DNA from: Candidatus Hydrogenedentota bacterium
GTDB taxonomy: Bacteria; Hydrogenedentota; Hydrogenedentia; Hydrogenedentales; SLHB01
Assembly (NCBI GenBank): GCA_045863335.1
Contig: BTVY01000007.1
Location: 32,001 to 96,000, forward strand
Direction: 5' to 3'
DNA: 64,000 nt
Part shown: one piece after another, positions 5,504-56,124 of the stretch
Layout of the letters: each line of letters opens with the position of its first letter
Position numbering within the stretch: position 1 is the first letter of the stretch
The notes under the pieces: generated by a model
What the model saw: only the letters and a program-made list of their open reading frames with translations
The model's database searches: none
What the model was told of the DNA's origin: nothing
Position numbers and translations under genes: made by a program

Positions 5504-5795
5504 CTACGAATTACCCGCCTCTCCGCCGGCTTCCTTTGCGCGTTTGCGCTTACGGCCTCGTTTGGCCGGACGGGGGAGGGGCCGAGCAGGTTCTCCAGTT
5601 GGACCACGAATCACGCCTTTGGCGTGACGCAAGGGCGGCCCGTGTTGGTCTGGCGGCGAATGCGATCGACGGCATCGGGGTCCTCCTCCACACGAAGCCA
5701 CTCCGCCCAGTCCCCAATGACGCCGGGCGGGGGGAACTCCTTCAATAGTAGCGTATCGGTCGCCAAACCGCAATGGGCTCGCGCAAAAACCACGG
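5504..5795 (-). pseudogene. C-terminal remnant of a REP-associated tyrosine (Y1/HUH) transposase (RAYT)
   Basis: Translation across frameshifts gives PW..ARAHCG...DWAEWL...DAVDRIRRQTNTGRPC[stop]FVVQLENLLG...RPAKRGRKRK. This matches the typical RAYT C-terminus (PWSSARAH...LRRxxxTGRPxGxxxF...RGRPxK). The HUH catalytic half is absent. Confidence 0.7.
5611..5627. repeat. Short palindromic hairpin element TCACGCC-TTT-GGCGTGA
   Basis: Perfect 7-bp stem; the same stem recurs at 52245-52260 and 52591-52607. Confidence 0.85.
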
Positions 5796-49546: not shown

Positions 49547-50958
49547 GTTTCGCGAGCATTCAATACGCGGTATTTCTGATCGTCGTCTATGGGCTCTACC
49601 GCCTGCTGTCGCACCGCGGGCAGAACATCATGCTGCTCATCGCCAGCTACGTCTTTTACGGCGCCTGGGACTGGCGGTTCCTGAGCCTCATGCTCATATC
49701 CACGTTTGTGGACTACTTTGTCGGCCTGCGTCTCCGCGACACGGAGAACGTGAGCACCCGGCGTAAGCTGCTCATGGCGTCGCTCGTGGCGAATCTCGGA
49801 ATGCTGGGGGTCTTCAAGTACTTCAATTTCTTCGCCGACTCTTTCGCGGAAATGATGGGCTGGTTTGGATTAACCGTCCACTGGACGACTTTATCCATCG
49901 TGCTGCCCGTCGGCATCTCTTTCTATACGTTCCAGACCCTGAGCTACACCATCGACGTCTACAACCGGAAACTGGAACCGACGGATCGCTTCCTGGATTT
50001 CGCCCTGTTCGTATCGTTCTTTCCCCAGTTGGTGGCGGGACCCATCGAGCGGGCCAGCCACCTTCTTCCGCAAGTGCTGACGAAACGAACCATCACCTGG
50101 GACCAAACCACGCGCGGCCTCTACCTCATCGCCTTTGGACTCTTCAAGAAGGTCGTCATCGCCGACGGCGTCGCGCGGTCGGTAGACGCCATCTACAACG
50201 CCAGCGGAACGGTTACGTGGGCGGACGTTATCCTGGCGACGTATCTCTTCGCGTTGCAGATCTACGGCGACTTCTCGGGATACAGCGACATCGCTCGCGG
50301 CACGGCGAAGCTCCTCGGCTTCGACATCATGACCAACTTCCGCCTCCCCTATTTCGCCACGAACCCCAGCGAGTTCTGGCGGCGCTGGCATATCAGCTTG
50401 TCCACCTGGCTGCGCGACTACCTGTACATCCCCCTCGGCGGCAACAAGAACGGCACGCGGCAGACCTATCGCAACCTGATGACCACGATGGTGCTCGGCG
50501 GGCTTTGGCACGGCGCGGCGTGGAACTTCGTCCTGTGGGGCATCTTCCAGGGCGGGATACTCTGCATTCACCGGCCCTTCGCGAAGCACGAGCCCGAGCC
50601 GAAGACCCTCGGCGCGCACATTGTCCGGGGGATCAAAGCCGCGTTGTTCTTCCAAGTTGTGTGTTACGGTTGGCTGCTCTTCCGCGCGCGGTCCTTCGAG
50701 CAGATCTGGAACTACACCATTACCCTGGTCGCCGATTTTGGCAACCTCGCCACTTCCATTCCCATGCCGCCCTTCGCGACGCTGTTGGGGATACCGCTTC
50801 TCTTCGTCCTCGACCTCATTGAATTCGAAACCGATACGCCCCAGTTCTACCGCCGCTGGATCACCCCGGCGCGGGGACTGTTGTACGCGGCACTACTCTT
50901 TATCTTTCTGATGGGAACCAGCAATGAACCATCCCAATTCATCTACTTCCAGTTCTAG
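49543..50958 (+). CDS. MBOAT family O-acyltransferase (AlgI/PatA-like)
   Basis: LPVGISFYTFQ, FFPQLVAGPIER, DFSGYSDIA, FWRRWHISLSTWLRDYLYIPLGG, GLWHGA, FIYFQF end; GTGA overlap. Confidence 0.95.
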   Translation: MSFASIQYAVFLIVVYGLYRLLSHRGQNIMLLIASYVFYGAWDWRFLSLMLISTFVDYFVGLRLRDTENVSTRRKLLMASLVANLGMLGVFKYFNFFADSFAEMMGWFGLTVHWTTLSIVLPVGISFYTFQTLSYTIDVYNRKLEPTDRFLDFALFVSFFPQLVAGPIERASHLLPQVLTKRTITWDQTTRGLYLIAFGLFKKVVIADGVARSVDAIYNASGTVTWADVILATYLFALQIYGDFSGYSDIARGTAKLLGFDIMTNFRLPYFATNPSEFWRRWHISLSTWLRDYLYIPLGGNKNGTRQTYRNLMTTMVLGGLWHGAAWNFVLWGIFQGGILCIHRPFAKHEPEPKTLGAHIVRGIKAALFFQVVCYGWLLFRARSFEQIWNYTITLVADFGNLATSIPMPPFATLLGIPLLFVLDLIEFETDTPQFYRRWITPARGLLYAALLFIFLMGTSNEPSQFIYFQF

Positions 50959-52078
50959 CCTGCCGCGGAAACGCGTGCGCGACGGAATCCGGGCCTGCGG
51001 CTGGATGATCCTGTTCCTCATCGGAATGGACATTACCGTGAACCTGATGTTCCCCTACCCCGCCGACCCCCAAGCGATGCCCAACTCGTTGGAACGCTAT
51101 TTCGAGTACGGCCGATCGGTTGAGGGCAAACTGCCGCGCATCGTCGGGCCCACCGATGAAACCACCCAGCCCGTTGCCGCGGCCGGTTGGCTGAACCCGG
51201 ACGACTGGAAAGAACAACCCACCGCGGCCGCCAGCGAAGACGGCGTCCTCCTGGCCGTCTACGGCATGTCCTTCGGCGCGGACCTCGGCGAATGGCTCTG
51301 CGCCCACGACGAACGGTTGACCATGCGATTCATCGGCGGCCCCGCGGCCCCGCCCAACTTCGTTTACGCCGCCTACACCATGGACCGGGGCCGGCACGAC
51401 GCGGACGTGGCGGTGCTCGCGATCATGGCGTCCAGCCTACGCGGCATGATGACCCTCACCGGGATGACGGTGAACTTCGAACAGCCCTTTCCCTTCACCT
51501 ATCCCCGGTACTCCGTCGTGGACGGCACTCTGAAAGCCGTGTGGCCGCGCATCCTCTCGCTGCCGGAACTCCGCGACGCCATGGCCGCCCCCGCCGAATG
51601 GGACCTCTTCGTCGACCAGCTCGCGGAACACGACGTGTACTACAGTCCCCTCCTCTTTGAAGGGACCCCTCTCGACCACTCCGCCATCGTGCGCATGTTG
51701 CGGCGCGCCTGGGCCCAACGGCGCAACCTCCGGATCATCCATTCCATCCATGGCCCCGCCGGGTTCGACGAAAACCAACCCCTCGTACCCGCGCTCAACC
51801 TCATGGTCAAGGAATTCGCGCAAACCTGCGAAGCAGACGGCATCGTCCCCATCGTCTACCTCGTCAACGACCGCGGCTACAGCGACCACCTCTTCAAACT
51901 CCTGCAACCCGTCCTCGACGAGAACGACACCACCTACCTCAGCTCCCACCAATTCGCCGACCCCGACAACCCCGCCAACTTCATCGGCGACGGCCACTTC
52001 ACCGATTCCGCCAACAACCAAATCGGCGAAGCGTTCCACGCCTTGCTCGCGCGGGAACTGGGGCCGGATAGCGATTGA
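50924..52078 (+). CDS. Membrane-anchored SGNH-like partner of the MBOAT (AlgJ/PatB-like)
   Basis: N-terminal TM, YGMSF (GDSF-like), C-terminal DGHF (DxH); adjacent to the MBOAT. Confidence 0.65.
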   Translation: MNHPNSSTSSSSLPRKRVRDGIRACGWMILFLIGMDITVNLMFPYPADPQAMPNSLERYFEYGRSVEGKLPRIVGPTDETTQPVAAAGWLNPDDWKEQPTAAASEDGVLLAVYGMSFGADLGEWLCAHDERLTMRFIGGPAAPPNFVYAAYTMDRGRHDADVAVLAIMASSLRGMMTLTGMTVNFEQPFPFTYPRYSVVDGTLKAVWPRILSLPELRDAMAAPAEWDLFVDQLAEHDVYYSPLLFEGTPLDHSAIVRMLRRAWAQRRNLRIIHSIHGPAGFDENQPLVPALNLMVKEFAQTCEADGIVPIVYLVNDRGYSDHLFKLLQPVLDENDTTYLSSHQFADPDNPANFIGDGHFTDSANNQIGEAFHALLARELGPDSD

Positions 52079-52219
52079 CGGCACCATCCAGCGCACTCGC
52101 ACGTGACTAACCGCAGAATCCAAACGCGCCGCTTCGACTCTCCCAAGCACCGAAGAATCCACGCAGATCTTCAATGCTAAGTACACGACGATCGGTGGCG
52201 CCAAACCGCCCCAACGGCA

Positions 52220-52483
52220 GCCCAACGGGCCTGCATACTTACAGTCACGCCACGGCGTGATTGGCGTGCCTTTGGCACGACTACCTGGGGTCACCTGTAC
52301 CCCCAATCTGGCTTCCCCTGAAAGGGGTATACAATACTTCGATCATTGTGCAACGCTTTCAGCGTATTGGTAGATCGGGGCTCCGGCACCCAGGCTAGGC
52401 CCTGCCGGTGGTACGCCGCGCAAGTGCGCGACGTCCCGCCGACCGAGCCAAGCCTGGGCTGCGAGTATGCAGGCCCGTTGGGC
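52220..52483. repeat. REPIN-like composite element bounded by 20-bp inverted repeats
   Basis: GCCCAACGGGCCTGCATACT (52220-52239) and its exact reverse complement (52464-52483); inner inverted pair CCCCTGAAAGGGG / CGCTTTCAGCG. Confidence 0.8.
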
Positions 52484-52561
52484 CAGATCGGAGCAGTGAT
52501 TGAGAAGTTGAGGAACTCGTTGTATGCCACGCGATTTGCGCCGAAAAGTGCACTCCCATCT

Positions 52562-52676
52562 TCCGCCTCGGACGAGGCGACAGACTGTAGTCACGCCGCA
52601 GGCGTGATGGAGCGAAGCGGAACGTTGGGTACCGCCACCGTCCCCTACCGCATAGCCCCCGAACGGCGGCGGTAGA
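52562..52676 (+). repeat. Second REP-type element (CGCCTCGGACGAGGCG...GGAGCGAAGCGGAA...GCCCCCGAACGGCGGCG) carrying an embedded TCACGCC/GGCGTGA hairpin
   Basis: Short GC hairpins and a GAGCGAAGCG loop typical of RAYT-associated REPs. Confidence 0.55.
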
Positions 52677-52758
52677 TCATCAGGAACGATCATCCCGATC
52701 CCGCTTCACCAGCCTGGCACGAAACGCGCACTACGGCACTGCCAATTCCTCCAGTTAG

Positions 52759-52813
52759 AAACGGGCGAGACGCCCATTCTCCTTGACTCCTAAATCGGTG
52801 AAAATCGGTCCAA
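52759..52813 (+). repeat. Left copy of a direct repeat flanking the TA module
   Basis: AAACGGGCGAGACGCCCATTCTCCTTG...TCCTAAATCGGTGAAAATCGGTCCAA; matches 53642-53711. Confidence 0.8.
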
Positions 52814-53003
52814 CTCGCCTCGGCATAGCCTCCGGCGGTGCCACGCCTGCGGCGTGGCGTGGCGCACGGATGGTGAGGGTCACGAGCGGCTAAACCGATT
52901 CACGACTTGTCACGCCTGTGGTTTGCATCGACGGATTGACACCAACAGCCGCTGCTGGTCTAATAGAGTTGTCGACCGTTCGCGCCGACAGGTGGAGATG
53001 CTT

Positions 53004-53231
53004 ATGACGTTTGAGCAAATCAAAGCCGAAATCAGCAGATTGCCACTCTCCGAGAAGCTCCTCTTGCTGGAGGATACGTGGGATTCCATCGCCGCGAATT
53101 CCAGCGAATTGCCCGTGCCCGAATGGCAGCGGAAGGAACTCGACAAACGGTATAAAGAGTACCTGGAGGGAGGCGTCGAGTTGCGCGACGCGCAGTCCGT
53201 TCACGAGTCGATCCGCAATAAGTACCGATGA
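53004..53231 (+). CDS. Addiction module antitoxin (TIGR02574-like)
   Basis: LPLSEKLLLLEDTWDSI...PVPEWQRKELDKR; GGAG RBS; ATGA overlap with the toxin. Confidence 0.88.
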   Translation: MTFEQIKAEISRLPLSEKLLLLEDTWDSIAANSSELPVPEWQRKELDKRYKEYLEGGVELRDAQSVHESIRNKYR

Positions 53232-53509
53232 AGCTGCGGTACACGCCGCGCGCCGCCCATGAACTGGAGGTGGCGGTCGACTGGTATGAGGAGCAGTGCC
53301 CAGGATTGGGCATCGAGTTTCTCGAATCCGTTGAAAGGGTGTTGGCATCGACTCGTGAGAATCCGTGGCTTTACCCGCGCACCCATGACGCTTTTCGCCG
53401 CTGCCTCACACGGCGATTCCCATTCTCCATCCACTTTACAATTGAAGACGATACCATCGTCCTGCATTCGGTTTTCGACAACCGGCGCAGTCCCAACGAT
53501 CTTCCGTGA
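53228..53509 (+). CDS. RelE/ParE family toxin
   Basis: YTPRAAHEL..AVDWYEEQ.PGLG.EF...RRCL.RRFPFSI...VFDNRRSP. Confidence 0.9.
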   Translation: MKLRYTPRAAHELEVAVDWYEEQCPGLGIEFLESVERVLASTRENPWLYPRTHDAFRRCLTRRFPFSIHFTIEDDTIVLHSVFDNRRSPNDLP

Positions 53510-53641
53510 CCGGAAATGGGGAAATTGTTACCTGCGACGAGGGACACCGGAATTCCATTGGTTCACGCTTAAGAACTTTGCTCATGTTCCTGGCGGTTCA
53601 CTTTTCTTCCGTTACGGCCTTGTCCAATCCTTCCGTCACGA

Positions 53642-53711
53642 AAACGGGCGAGACGCCCGTTCTCCTTGTCGCACGTTCTCTTAGGTCCTATATCGGTGAA
53701 AGTCGGTGCAA
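53642..53711 (+). repeat. Right copy of the direct repeat flanking the TA module
   Basis: AAACGGGCGAGACGCCCGTTCTCCTTG (26/27 identical to the left copy)...TCCTATATCGGTGAAAGTCGGTGCAA. Confidence 0.8.
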
Positions 53712-53886
53712 TCGGTGGACTGCCGATACCCCGTCTTCATCTGCGGCAATCTGCGTCATCTGCGGATCGATCCCTGCCGTTGATTGCCACGCCGCCGGTG
53801 TGGACGGTATAGTGCAACGCGGTGGCGATACCCCAGTGTTTCGGTCCGTAGTTTGCAGTGGTAGTCCGCGTTAGAAGGTTCTTTTC

Positions 53887-56124
53887 ATGCCTGTTTCCAA
53901 TATTGCCAAGCTGACCATCAGCGAGTCCGATCTGCGCGGCGCGTTGATTGAATCCGTGCGCGTGTCGAACAGCCCCGGGGCGGTTGCCTACGTGGGCGAC
54001 CGCTGGGGCGCGATACTCCATGAAGCGACGGGGAACCGTCAGCTCGTCCCGGCGCCGGTGAAGGCGGAGGTCAACACGATCTACGATCTGGCGTCGCTCA
54101 CGAAGGTCGTGGCCACCACCACGGCGGTGATGCAGTTGCACGAGGCTGGCAAGATCCAACTCGATCGGCCCGTCTCCGACTACCTGCCGATCCCTGCCTT
54201 CGACGCATTTACCGTACGGCATTGTCTCACCCACAGCGCGGGTCTCGTGCCCGGCCTTCCGTATTACAAGGAATGCAGCTCCATCGACGAGATGCTCCAG
54301 CGCTACGCGGAGGTCCCCCTCAAGTCGCAACCGGGGACGCGGTGGCTGTACTCAGATGTGGGGTTCATGATCCTCGGGCGTATCGTCGAACTGGTGGCAG
54401 CGGATTCGCTGGATGCCTACTGCCGGAAACACATCTTCGAACCGCTCGGGATGGCCGACACCGGCTTCAAGCCCGATACCGCGCGCCGGGCCCGCTGCGC
54501 CGCCACGGAGAACTGTCCCTGGAGAGGCGCCTTGATGGTCGGCGAGGTTCACGACGAGAACGCCTACGCCGCCGGAGGCGTGGCGGGCCATGCCGGGCTT
54601 TTCGGAACCGCCGCGGACCTTGCGACCTTTGTCCGCGCGCTGTTGGCCGGGAAGATCCTGCGTCCGGACACCGTGAGCGAAATGACCCGCGCGCCGCAAA
54701 TCCCCGCGTGGCCCTGGCAGGGGATCGGCTGGCAGTTAGACGGATGGTCGTCGAAGCACAGCGGCTTCCTCACCTCCCGCACAACCATGGGCCACTCGGG
54801 TTGGACCGGCACCAGTCTGTGGATGGACTGGAAACGGGGCCAGTTTGCCATCCTCCTCGGAAACACCTGCCACCCGTCCCGCAGCGCGCGCAACAATGTG
54901 GATTTCCGGCGAGTCTTTCACGCCGCCGTCTCCAAGGCGCTCTACAAGAACACGATCAACACGCACAGTGGGCTCGATCGGTTGCAGCGGGAGGACTTCG
55001 GCGAACTGCGCGGGAAGCGCGTTGCACTCCTCACCCACCATGCCGCCGTCGACCAGTTGGGCCGGCACATCCTCGACGTGTTCGCCCTGGCGCCCGACGT
55101 GCAACTGAAACTGCTCTATAGCCCGGAACACGGCATCAGAGGCCACGCGGAAGCCGGAGAATCCGTGCCCTCAGAGAATGGCGACATCCCGGTCATCAGC
55201 CTGTACGGCGCGCGCAAGGCGCCCACGACCGAAGAACTCCGCGGGATCGACTGGTTCGTCATCGATCTCCAGGATGTCGGCGCGCGGTATTACACCTACG
55301 CGGCAACCATGAAGGACTGCCTGGAGGCCTGCGCGCAGGCCGGGGTCCCGGTGCTGGTACTGGATCGGCCCAACCCGGTAGGCGGCACGATTCTGGAGGG
55401 TCCCATCGCGCTCAACACGGCTTCGCCCGTTTGTTGGGGCGCCGTGCCCATCCGCCATGGGATGACCATGGGCGAGATCGCGCTCCATTTCCAGCGCACC
55501 GAATTCGCGAGCACCAAATTGAGCGTATCCGTCAGCGCCCTCGATAACTGGTTGCCCAGCCGGTTCTTCGACGCCTGCTCCCTGCCCTGGCTCCCGCCGT
55601 CCCCCAATATCCCGGATGCCGGAACGGCCATCCTCTACACCGGCACCTGCCTCTTCGAAGGCACGAACCTCAACGAAGGCCGCGGCACGGAGACACCATT
55701 TGAGATCATCGGCGCGCCGTGGCTGGACAGCTCGGCCGTGCTCGGTATCCTGGATGAGGAGGCCTGTGCCGGTATGCAGTTGGACGCGATCCAATACACG
55801 CCGGTGAGCATCCCCGGCAAGGCATCCAGTCCGCGCTATCAGGACACGTTATGCAACGGCATACGGATCACGCTGTTGGACGCGCACGAAGCCCGGCCCT
55901 TTGCCGCCACGGTCGCATTGATCGCGGCAATTCGCAAGACGCATCCCGCTGAGTTTGCATGGGGACCGAGCTTCGATGTCCTCGCCGGCTCGAATGATCT
56001 CCGAACGCGCATCGAGCAAGGCCAAGGGTGGCGCGAGATTATTGCAGCCTACGCCCCGGGGATCGCGAAATTCGATGCGATACGCCCCAGATTGTACAGT
56101 GATGACGTAGTTGGAATGCCTTAG
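53887..56124 (+). CDS. Serine hydrolase (beta-lactamase/AmiE-like) fused to a DUF1343 NamZ exo-beta-N-acetylmuramidase
   Basis: SxxK (DLASLTK), YSD, GEVHDENA, GHAGLF, GHSGWTG; then SPEHG, DLQDVGARYYTY, LDRPNP, RHGMTMGE, PSPN, EGRGT. Confidence 0.9.
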   Translation: MPVSNIAKLTISESDLRGALIESVRVSNSPGAVAYVGDRWGAILHEATGNRQLVPAPVKAEVNTIYDLASLTKVVATTTAVMQLHEAGKIQLDRPVSDYLPIPAFDAFTVRHCLTHSAGLVPGLPYYKECSSIDEMLQRYAEVPLKSQPGTRWLYSDVGFMILGRIVELVAADSLDAYCRKHIFEPLGMADTGFKPDTARRARCAATENCPWRGALMVGEVHDENAYAAGGVAGHAGLFGTAADLATFVRALLAGKILRPDTVSEMTRAPQIPAWPWQGIGWQLDGWSSKHSGFLTSRTTMGHSGWTGTSLWMDWKRGQFAILLGNTCHPSRSARNNVDFRRVFHAAVSKALYKNTINTHSGLDRLQREDFGELRGKRVALLTHHAAVDQLGRHILDVFALAPDVQLKLLYSPEHGIRGHAEAGESVPSENGDIPVISLYGARKAPTTEELRGIDWFVIDLQDVGARYYTYAATMKDCLEACAQAGVPVLVLDRPNPVGGTILEGPIALNTASPVCWGAVPIRHGMTMGEIALHFQRTEFASTKLSVSVSALDNWLPSRFFDACSLPWLPPSPNIPDAGTAILYTGTCLFEGTNLNEGRGTETPFEIIGAPWLDSSAVLGILDEEACAGMQLDAIQYTPVSIPGKASSPRYQDTLCNGIRITLLDAHEARPFAATVALIAAIRKTHPAEFAWGPSFDVLAGSNDLRTRIEQGQGWREIIAAYAPGIAKFDAIRPRLYSDDVVGMP

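Follow-up and report, generated by a model that had tools for sequence, protein, structure and literature searches.

How can one and the same short hairpin come to stand in the place of a stem arm in repeats that belong to several different families? This question is raised by the 64,000-nt stretch of DNA analysed here, which we call the window (G000:C7:32001-96000, from a genome of 6.75 Mb in 105 contigs with 60% G+C). A preliminary description of the window had reported a hairpin of 16-17 nt that appeared to overwrite arms of REP elements. The hairpin is real, and its coordinates and strings were given correctly there: a search for TCACGCC-N2-4-GGCGTGA returned three matches in the window (5611-5627, 52245-52260, and 52591-52607), where none was expected, the mean over 100 dinucleotide-preserving shuffles of the window being 0.00, with no match in any of them. 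A scan of the whole genome, as that description had proposed, yielded 12 exact copies of TCACGCC-N2-3-GGCGTGA, which we call the cassette, and 23 copies of the variant CCACGCC..GGCGTGG. When all 7-bp stems that form a hairpin with a 2-5-nt loop were ranked across the whole genome, the cassette stem came 26th among 2,166 observed stems and the CCACGCC variant 12th. The shuffles and these ranks place the cassette hairpin far above chance; it is one among many hairpin repeats of this genome and not the commonest. Read from its copies, the cassette is a predicted self-folding unit of 16-17 nt with the consensus YCACGCC-N2-3-GGCGTGR. No target duplication was seen at the cassette sites, as had been claimed.

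Contigs from four runs of four studies that cover window positions 52150-52750 carried the window alleles with 0 differences, and none of them had an indel at either cassette; as contigs drop rare variants, this match is uninformative on low-frequency switching. One RNA-library contig covers the same stretch, which is not proof of transcription. Eleven of the 12 exact cassettes lie in REP/RAYT-type DNA, so that the claim that every copy does so holds with the exception of C61:30043, which lies in a YD/RHS-like coding repeat.

The REP elements of the genome follow a plan that is common to the families: a small hairpin is followed some 9 nt on by a tag (GTAG, ATAG, or CAG) and a 7-nt arm, then come T(T)GG with an inner hairpin or loop and the complementary arm of 7 nt, and a further small hairpin lies about 25 nt beyond. 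The halves are usually arranged in facing pairs, in the manner of a REPIN, and the copies are dispersed and mostly intergenic. Families I and II together comprise 41 halves (nhmmer, whole genome), mostly in facing pairs, with an NYAG tag that is often ATAG, GTAG, or CAG; family III comprises 43 copies (regular expression, whole genome), most of which have a GTAG tag. Matches to PF01797 (Y1 transposase) are flanked by family I REPs at C53:34794, by family II REPs at C4:3944, and by family III REPs at C16:55716, C62:205, and C7:164598. As the same families flank PF01797 genes, we regard the elements as REP/REPIN-RAYT systems. In known systems of this kind (REPtrons, with a domesticated Y1 transposase) and here, a GTAG-type tag stands at the 5' foot of the palindrome, there are dozens of intergenic copies, inverted doublets are formed (~230-270 nt), and the elements flank Y1 transposase genes. 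Although family I has seven different arm sequences, a perfect partner exists for 24 of its 28 arms, which reflects compensatory change, and the same holds for four of five arms in family II. This near-perfect pairing suggests frequent templated correction in these REPs.

An Rfam scan of window positions 50000-56000 (E<=1) gave 0 matches, indicating that the REP structure is not a known RNA family. A reading of the GCCCAAC...GTTGGGC ends as integron attC sites was considered and dropped, as this motif forms a small hairpin, of which compensatory variants exist (GGCC-TGAAA-GGCC, GTCCC-AAC-GGGAC), and as RAYT genes lie between such elements.

Where a REP carries the cassette, it lies directly 3' of the (G)TAG tag where other copies have the 7-nt 5' arm, and the 3' arm is retained but has no partner. 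We found this state in 4 of 33 halves of family I, 3 of 8 halves of family II, and 4 of 43 copies of family III, and in all families compared only the tag-side arm was replaced, never the 3' arm. The REPs concerned in the window are built as follows:

52218..52345, + strand: left REPIN half, family I, subfamily with the inner hairpin GCGTGCC-TTT-GGCACG
~52220-52230, + strand: small hairpin a of the left half
52241-52244, + strand: tag ACAG of the left half (YAG at 52242-52244)
52245..52260, + strand: cassette copy 1, TCACGCC-AC-GGCGTGA, at the position of the 5' arm
52261-52281, + strand: TT and inner hairpin of the left half (TTGGC directly after the cassette)
52284..52290, + strand: orphaned 3' arm CCTGGGG of the left half
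52315-52327, + strand: hairpin c of the left half
52342..52485, - strand: right REPIN half, other family I subfamily, 5' arm intact
52565..52675, + strand: REP of family III-b
52565-52578, + strand: hairpin a of the III-b REP
52587-52590, + strand: GTAG of the III-b REP
52591..52607, + strand: cassette copy 2, TCACGCC-GCA-GGCGTGA, in place of CCCAACG
52608-52622, + strand: loop TGGAGCGAAGCGGAA of the III-b REP
52623..52629, + strand: orphaned 3' arm CGTTGGG of the III-b REP
~52656-52671, + strand: distal GC hairpin of the III-b REP

For copy 1 (case 1), the preliminary description had compared the two halves of the REPIN with each other. The strings were right, and so was the conclusion that a 7-nt arm had been replaced and its partner orphaned, but the half used for comparison belongs to another subfamily; there the 5' arm CCCAGGC (52452-52458, reverse-complemented) has a partner of its own in the 3' arm GCCTGGG (52389-52395, reverse-complemented). 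The true hairpin-free equivalents are therefore three paralogues of the same subfamily (C5:24728-, C53:34594+, and C53:35663+), which have CCCCAGG at the position of copy 1, pairing with CCTGGGG, and with these the conclusion stands. For copy 2 (case 2), the orphaned arm had led to the prediction of a lost CCCAACG, and exactly this arm was found at the syntenic locus of the congener G003 (L015) and in the paralogues of the genome, eight III-b copies keeping CCCAACG at this position and a ninth reading CCCAATG. In DNA folding, the G003 allele formed the long stem, and the window allele formed the cassette hairpin and left CGTTGGG free. Folded on their own as DNA, copies 1 and 2 reached -5.2 and -7.0 kcal/mol, respectively, and the cassette stem was as stable as the stem replaced.

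Two further sites had been listed in the preliminary description as a compensated and a decayed copy of the hairpin. The first is a real hairpin, but it is native to another repeat family (C1:110485; G003:C486), and no arm has been replaced:

52840..52858, + strand: GCCACGCC-TGC-GGCGTGGC hairpin with the same core stem as the cassette, in a different repeat family; not a replaced REP arm

The second, at 52909-52925, has mismatches at 3 of 7 positions of its right arm and no supporting paralogue, and we treat it as chance. A hairpin of the same repeat family as 52840-52858, CCACGCC-TGC-GGCGTGG, has lost 5 nt (CCACG) in G000 at C1:108300 in comparison with G003:C486 (L034), the flanks being 97% identical, which we read as cassette decay by a small deletion.

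Five congeners (G001-G005) were found for comparison with the genome of the window (G000). Seven syntenic loci, and an eighth that is only partly syntenic as L031 begins at a contig end, showed a clean exchange between 7 nt and 16-17 nt, bounded by (G)TAG and T(T)GG. At the locus of copy 2, G003:C743, which has the same downstream gene, reads GTAG-CCCAACG-TGGAGCG where the window reads GTAG-cassette-TGGAGCG with the cassette at 52591, and the next 40 nt are identical. The remaining syntenic pairs are the following:

Cassette allele at G005:C471, arm allele at G000:C37
Cassette allele at G005:C67, arm allele at G000:C5:24850
Cassette allele at G005:C80, arm allele at G000:C43
Cassette allele at G003:C844, arm allele at G000:C42
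Cassette allele at G005:C371, arm allele at G000:C5:44720
Cassette allele at G000:C1:255745, arm allele at G003:C100

The swaps go both ways between genomes, the cassette being found now in one species and now in another. In the cassette alleles, the retained 3' arm is complementary to the 5' arm of the other species. In two of the pairs (d and e), flank identity on either side extends up to the tag, and no co-converted flanking differences that would mark a donor are visible at the syntenic pairs. As the orthologous loci are aligned, we regard it as proved that block replacement happened in place. The comparison with hairpin-free paralogues and orthologues that had been proposed earlier thus came out in favor of a swapped block of 7 nt, and neither point mutation nor simple insertion describes it.

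With respect to direction, the arm is found in G000 and G003 and the cassette only in G005 at C5:44720, a pattern that indicates cassette gain. At C42, the cassette is present in G003 and G005 and the arm in G000, which could mean that G000 lost it, or that G003 and G005 gained it once in common or each on its own; as the three genomes are about equally distant, these alternatives are indistinguishable. Judging from this locus in G000, the change may also run backwards, from cassette to arm. Cassettes common to orthologues were found at C34, C64, C37:6684, and C20, and in the family II copies.

The third cassette of the window (case 3) lies in a gene fragment:

5504..5793, - strand: C-terminal fragment of a Y1-transposase-like gene of a multi-copy family, with the frame broken by the cassette
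5611..5627, + strand: cassette copy 3, TCACGCC-TTT-GGCGTGA, which replaced an 11-nt block

The preliminary description had seen the stem interrupt a RAYT remnant here, and this is confirmed by the alignment of eight gene copies, three of which carry the 17-nt cassette (window, G000:C27, and G005:C122) and five an 11-nt block of the GCGGGAGCCGG type, itself a small hairpin. G005:C139, which is 90% identical to the window copy, keeps the 11-nt block. On the coding (minus) strand of copy 3, the cassette ends in an in-frame TGA and thereby creates a new stop codon. This swap in a gene fragment means that block replacement is not confined to REP arms. The cassette contexts are three REP families and one gene fragment, and a tag adjoins the cassette in all but one of them. 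The proposal of a recurrent replacement at one structural position, almost only in REP/RAYT-type DNA, has been upheld.

The loops of the cassettes were compared in the orientation read from the tag. Among the T-type cassettes of the four congeners that have these families, GCA was found 11 times, ACA five times, and GCC three times, with GCT, GCG, ATC, and AC once each at the same position; orthologues were counted separately, so that these numbers are not independent events. Exact-pattern searches, some of which required AG before and T after the motif, gave no reverse complements of the tag-side loops. An imperfect second cassette copy at G005:C471 has the loop GGC. As the GCA loop is common to families I and III, the block seems to have been copied together with its loop. 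Family II has a cassette type of its own, CCACGCC with the loop AT, GT, or ATG, which is conserved at the right flank of the family's RAYT in G000 and G004, and family II REPs with the same cassette type are also present in G003 and G005. The tagged motif occurs in all six genomes of the genus (13, 3, 3, 6, 7, and 9 copies) and, with one or two copies apiece, in only 3 of the 127 further genomes of the order; a reversed-pattern control gave 0 matches in the six genus genomes and 1 elsewhere in the order. The tagged motif is essentially genus-specific.

Does a gene travel with the cassette? None was found among the Y1 transposases, which were screened at 11 loci in G000 and 30 in the five congeners. 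The cassette is on both flanks of the Y1 gene at 0 of these 41 loci in the six genomes, and on one flank at two, G000:C4 and G004:C10, which have the same RAYT type and carry it in the right-flank REP. A cognate RAYT for tag and cassette as a minimal REP was sought and not found, as no Y1 locus is flanked on both sides. Family VI of G001 and G002, where a longer inverted repeat encloses tag and cassette, was a candidate for the home family and was rejected, as there are only three tagged copies per genome and no RAYT is nearby. The preliminary description had imagined a dedicated enzyme or gene family flanking the hairpin; no such family emerged from the 41 Y1 loci, where the only association is one RAYT type on one flank. 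Nor did we find evidence for its suggestion of a reverse transcriptase or of hyperparasite behavior; the donors may be other REPs that bear the cassette.

What, then, writes a cassette over an arm? We tentatively prefer templated copying from one REP to another, non-reciprocal and effected at the hairpin foot either by a double template switch or by short-patch conversion, and consider it quite possible and short of probable. The cassette would have no enzyme of its own and would be templated by a REP in which it is already present. A strand being extended in replication or repair would stall at the foot of a folded REP, just past the tag, pair via the short shared tag with another REP, copy the cassette, and return in a second switch at the shared T(T)GG 3' of the arm. 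Such a double template switch would be equivalent to a very short conversion patch. The product would keep the form of a tag with a perfect short hairpin, as known minimal REPs have it, and might for this reason still work as a REP head.

Templated copying would explain why the junctions are sharp and the polarity is fixed, why copies share a loop, why no target duplication is seen, and why the cassette is restricted to REP-like DNA. It is in agreement with the block replacement in place at the seven syntenic pairs and with the tight tract limits of pairs d and e, as well as with the failure to find a linked gene among the Y1 transposases screened; the near-perfect arm pairing would fit active templated correction in REPs. 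According to the accessible parts of a study on quasi-palindromes (PMC5941160), it is well established that templates can be switched at short inverted repeats. However, donor and recipient from different families share only 2-4 nt of homology per side (AG/TAG, T(T)G), and in case 3 only about 1 + 2 nt. Switches on such homology should be rare, yet at least five REP lineages have the cassette. As the cassette stem is no less stable than the stem it replaced, easier copying does not explain the bias. Further points against templated copying are that no co-converted differences marking a donor were seen, that in families I and II the return point TTGG falls partly within the inner stem instead of an open loop, and that none of the REP donors seen has the loop of case 3 (AAA/TTT). 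The family II cassette that is kept at the RAYT right flank in G000 and G004 hints, moreover, at a function tied to the transposase.

Two local sources of the cassette were considered and rejected. Quasi-palindrome correction does not apply, as neither cassette arm matches the local 3' arm or loop. A local de novo origin from the 3' flank of the REP would be expected to leave TCACGCCGC repeated there, which is the case only in C20:65196, and we keep this origin only as an idea for the founding event. In that cassette REP (C20:65152-65280), TCACGCCGC occurs again immediately after the 3' arm, and GGCGTGA could pair either way; this arrangement may be a relic of the first cassette origin.

The main rival of templated copying is an exchange of REP heads by a RAYT, an HUH Y1 transposase that would cut single-stranded DNA at both ends of the tag-side arm and rejoin the segment of another REP. 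We consider this somewhat unlikely. Every replaced REP arm abuts the tag, and in known REP systems, as presented in the available sections of PMC8266576, the tag guides recognition and the choice of the cleavage site, and TnpA-REP cuts at CT or CA, on either the 5' or the 3' side of the hairpin; cleavage and strand transfer by RAYTs have been shown in vitro, and no in vivo product is known there. RAYT genes flanked by each of the three REP families are present, and in both G000 and G004 the right flank of one RAYT type is occupied by a cassette REP. In addition, TCAC is the commonest start of the sequence that follows a whole REP stem (about 11 of 39 in family III and 6 of 27 in family I, counted by eye). 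As the cassette also starts with TCAC, the junction of tag and TCAC looks like the joint left by hairpin excision. Against an exchange by RAYTs stands that a block swap needs two coordinated exchanges and that the known cleavage sites, in the same sections of PMC8266576, lie outside the hairpin and not at the stem-loop junction. No RAYT in the six genomes has tag and cassette on both sides, and case 3 has no adjoining tag.

Programmed sequence replacement, in which an enzyme reads the tag and the hairpin foot, excises the tag-side arm, and writes the 17-nt hairpin, is unlikely in our estimate; the enzyme would be a RAYT or an unrecognised HUH or polymerase activity. If this were true, the cassette would be a mobile unit far smaller than any known transposable element, replacing instead of inserting, and we would have a first view of RAYTs remodelling or retargeting REPs in vivo.

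REP evolution by gene conversion is reportedly an old proposal. Applied to the cassette, it would mean that ordinary two-way homologous conversion among REP paralogues shuffles an old polymorphism of arm and cassette, inherited or acquired once per family. Such shuffling would suit the stretch of about 100 nt, 80-90% identical, that donor and recipient of one family have in common, and the one locus that possibly went from cassette to arm. It is nevertheless distinctly improbable, as the tract never visibly extends beyond the block itself, there is next to no sequence in common around the site between families I, II, and III, the cassette of case 3 lies outside a REP, and only the tag-side arm is affected.

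We are still more doubtful about a dedicated enzyme, an HUH nuclease or a reverse transcriptase with a template, that overwrites hairpins as a parasite of parasites or as a disabling device. In its favor, the landing contexts seem unrelated and are themselves small hairpins or arms (REP families I-III, the transposase-like gene, and possibly one copy of the GTAGCGCAGGCGTCC family), the stem sequence is conserved while the loop varies, and the motif is restricted to one genus. However, the screen of Y1 transposases gave no linked gene near any copy, the copy number is low (3-13 tagged per genome), the GCA loop shared between copies fits copying from existing copies, and a reversal is possible at G000:C42. 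Chance, an assembly artefact, or the independent insertion of different REP variants at the same sites is hardly credible even in a genome full of hairpin repeats (2,166 different 7-bp stems), given the absence of window matches in 100 shuffles and of reversed-pattern matches in the six genus genomes, the same alleles in contigs of four runs from four studies, and the private flanks and inner details that orthologous REPs share.

A full-text literature search on REP/RAYT and template switching found no description of an arm-for-hairpin swap. In the REP/REPIN-RAYT literature, as far as its texts were accessible, neither the replacement of an arm by a self-folding hairpin nor the alternation of arm and cassette at orthologous loci is described. 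The swap is recurrent and sharply defined, and we see in it a variant within REP/RAYT biology. The closest published statement, in the accessible text of PMC3733652, is that some REPs lie inside other palindromes. That work on Thermomicrobium describes GTAG-23 within CCGSSCC..GGSSCGG, and there, as here, small GTAG palindromes are associated with other palindromic repeats; in the text at hand, however, they are presented as insertions in the target palindrome and not as replacements of an arm, and orthologous loci are not compared.

Known minimal REPs provide the nearest format. The group 3 REP of Stenotrophomonas, as given in the available part of PMC8266576, consists of GTAG, an 8-bp perfect palindrome, and a 3-nt loop, 23 nt in total, and tag and cassette have the same format, with (G)TAG, a 7-bp perfect stem, and a 2-3-nt loop. 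The difference is that the cassette lies inside larger REPs, whose arm it replaces, and that no RAYT in the six genomes is flanked by it on both sides. Quasi-palindrome template-switch mutagenesis, in the accessible text of PMC5941160, is likewise a one-step, multi-base, templated event with two switches at a hairpin, but it copies the opposite arm and perfects the palindrome, whereas here the template would have to lie elsewhere and the long palindrome is broken. The single-strand transposition of IS200/IS605, as covered by the sections of PMC8266576 at hand, is likewise hairpin-dependent, polar beside a guide tetranucleotide, and free of target duplication; in contrast, the cassette is a geneless single hairpin of 16-17 nt that removes 7-11 nt of its target.

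With the orthologous arms of related species at hand, we conclude that these elements are rewritten where they stand, probably by some process of copying. The event is sharply bounded, polar, located beside the tag that guides the transposase, and recurrent in several REP families, which makes the question of how REPs and REPINs originate, are copied, and diversify a testable one. The species of the genus supply the states before and after the swap at one and the same locus, each of the two junctions is predicted to be either a site of cleavage or a point of polymerase switching, and the system is small enough to be rebuilt on a plasmid. Templated switching between dispersed hairpins, if it is the cause, would be a clear natural case of ectopic microhomology copying in bacteria, and an enzymatic cause would mean a new kind of DNA rewriting.

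Several other repeats of the genome resemble the cassette or its hosts. A REP-like family of the form GGAGTGCGG-[apical hairpin]-CTGCTTT has about 45 copies in G000 (e.g., C3:201099, C74:7978, C2:180, and C62:13970) and co-varying 10-nt tops (CCCCTTGGGG, CCGCTTGCGG, TCCCTTGGGA, and CCACTTGTGG); about 10 of its copies have a native 16-nt top YCACGCC-NN-GGCGTGR, and this family may be where the cassette stem originated. Another REP type, at C48:4269 and C48:4721, has a native apical CCACGCC-NNN-GGCGTGG between intact CCCNGGG arms. The commonest hairpin of the genome by far is TCCCCCTT..AAGGGGGA, with about 240-280 copies (e.g., C27:18045 and C2:36264). A second REP-like family, GTAGCGCAGGCGTCC with the stem GCAGGCG, has about 75 copies, and in one of them (G000:C42:13197, + strand) the distal arm is altered: GCAG is followed by a 16-nt block ending in GGCGTGA, where the other copies have about 10 nt; this block looks like a decayed cassette in another REP family.

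The YD/RHS-like repeat genes (C61:30043, C2:150836; G003:C447; G004:C10:402922) contain the same near-palindrome as coding sequence. We rejected C61:30043 as a replacement, as the near-palindrome is native coding sequence (ITPAAS in C2:150836) and the perfect form differs by one base, which makes a stop codon. A perfect palindrome ending in this stop codon was found in three genomes, and the perfection could have arisen by template switching in orphan gene fragments.

Downstream of the REPs discussed here, window positions 52998-53509 (+ strand) hold two small overlapping ORFs that look like an antitoxin and a ParE-RelE-type toxin. This pair is absent from the syntenic intergenic region in G003, G005, and G004, and G004 has a similar pair elsewhere (L014). 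The whole 1.8-kb stretch between the two flanking genes is made up of stacked inserted repeats and the toxin-antitoxin-like pair.
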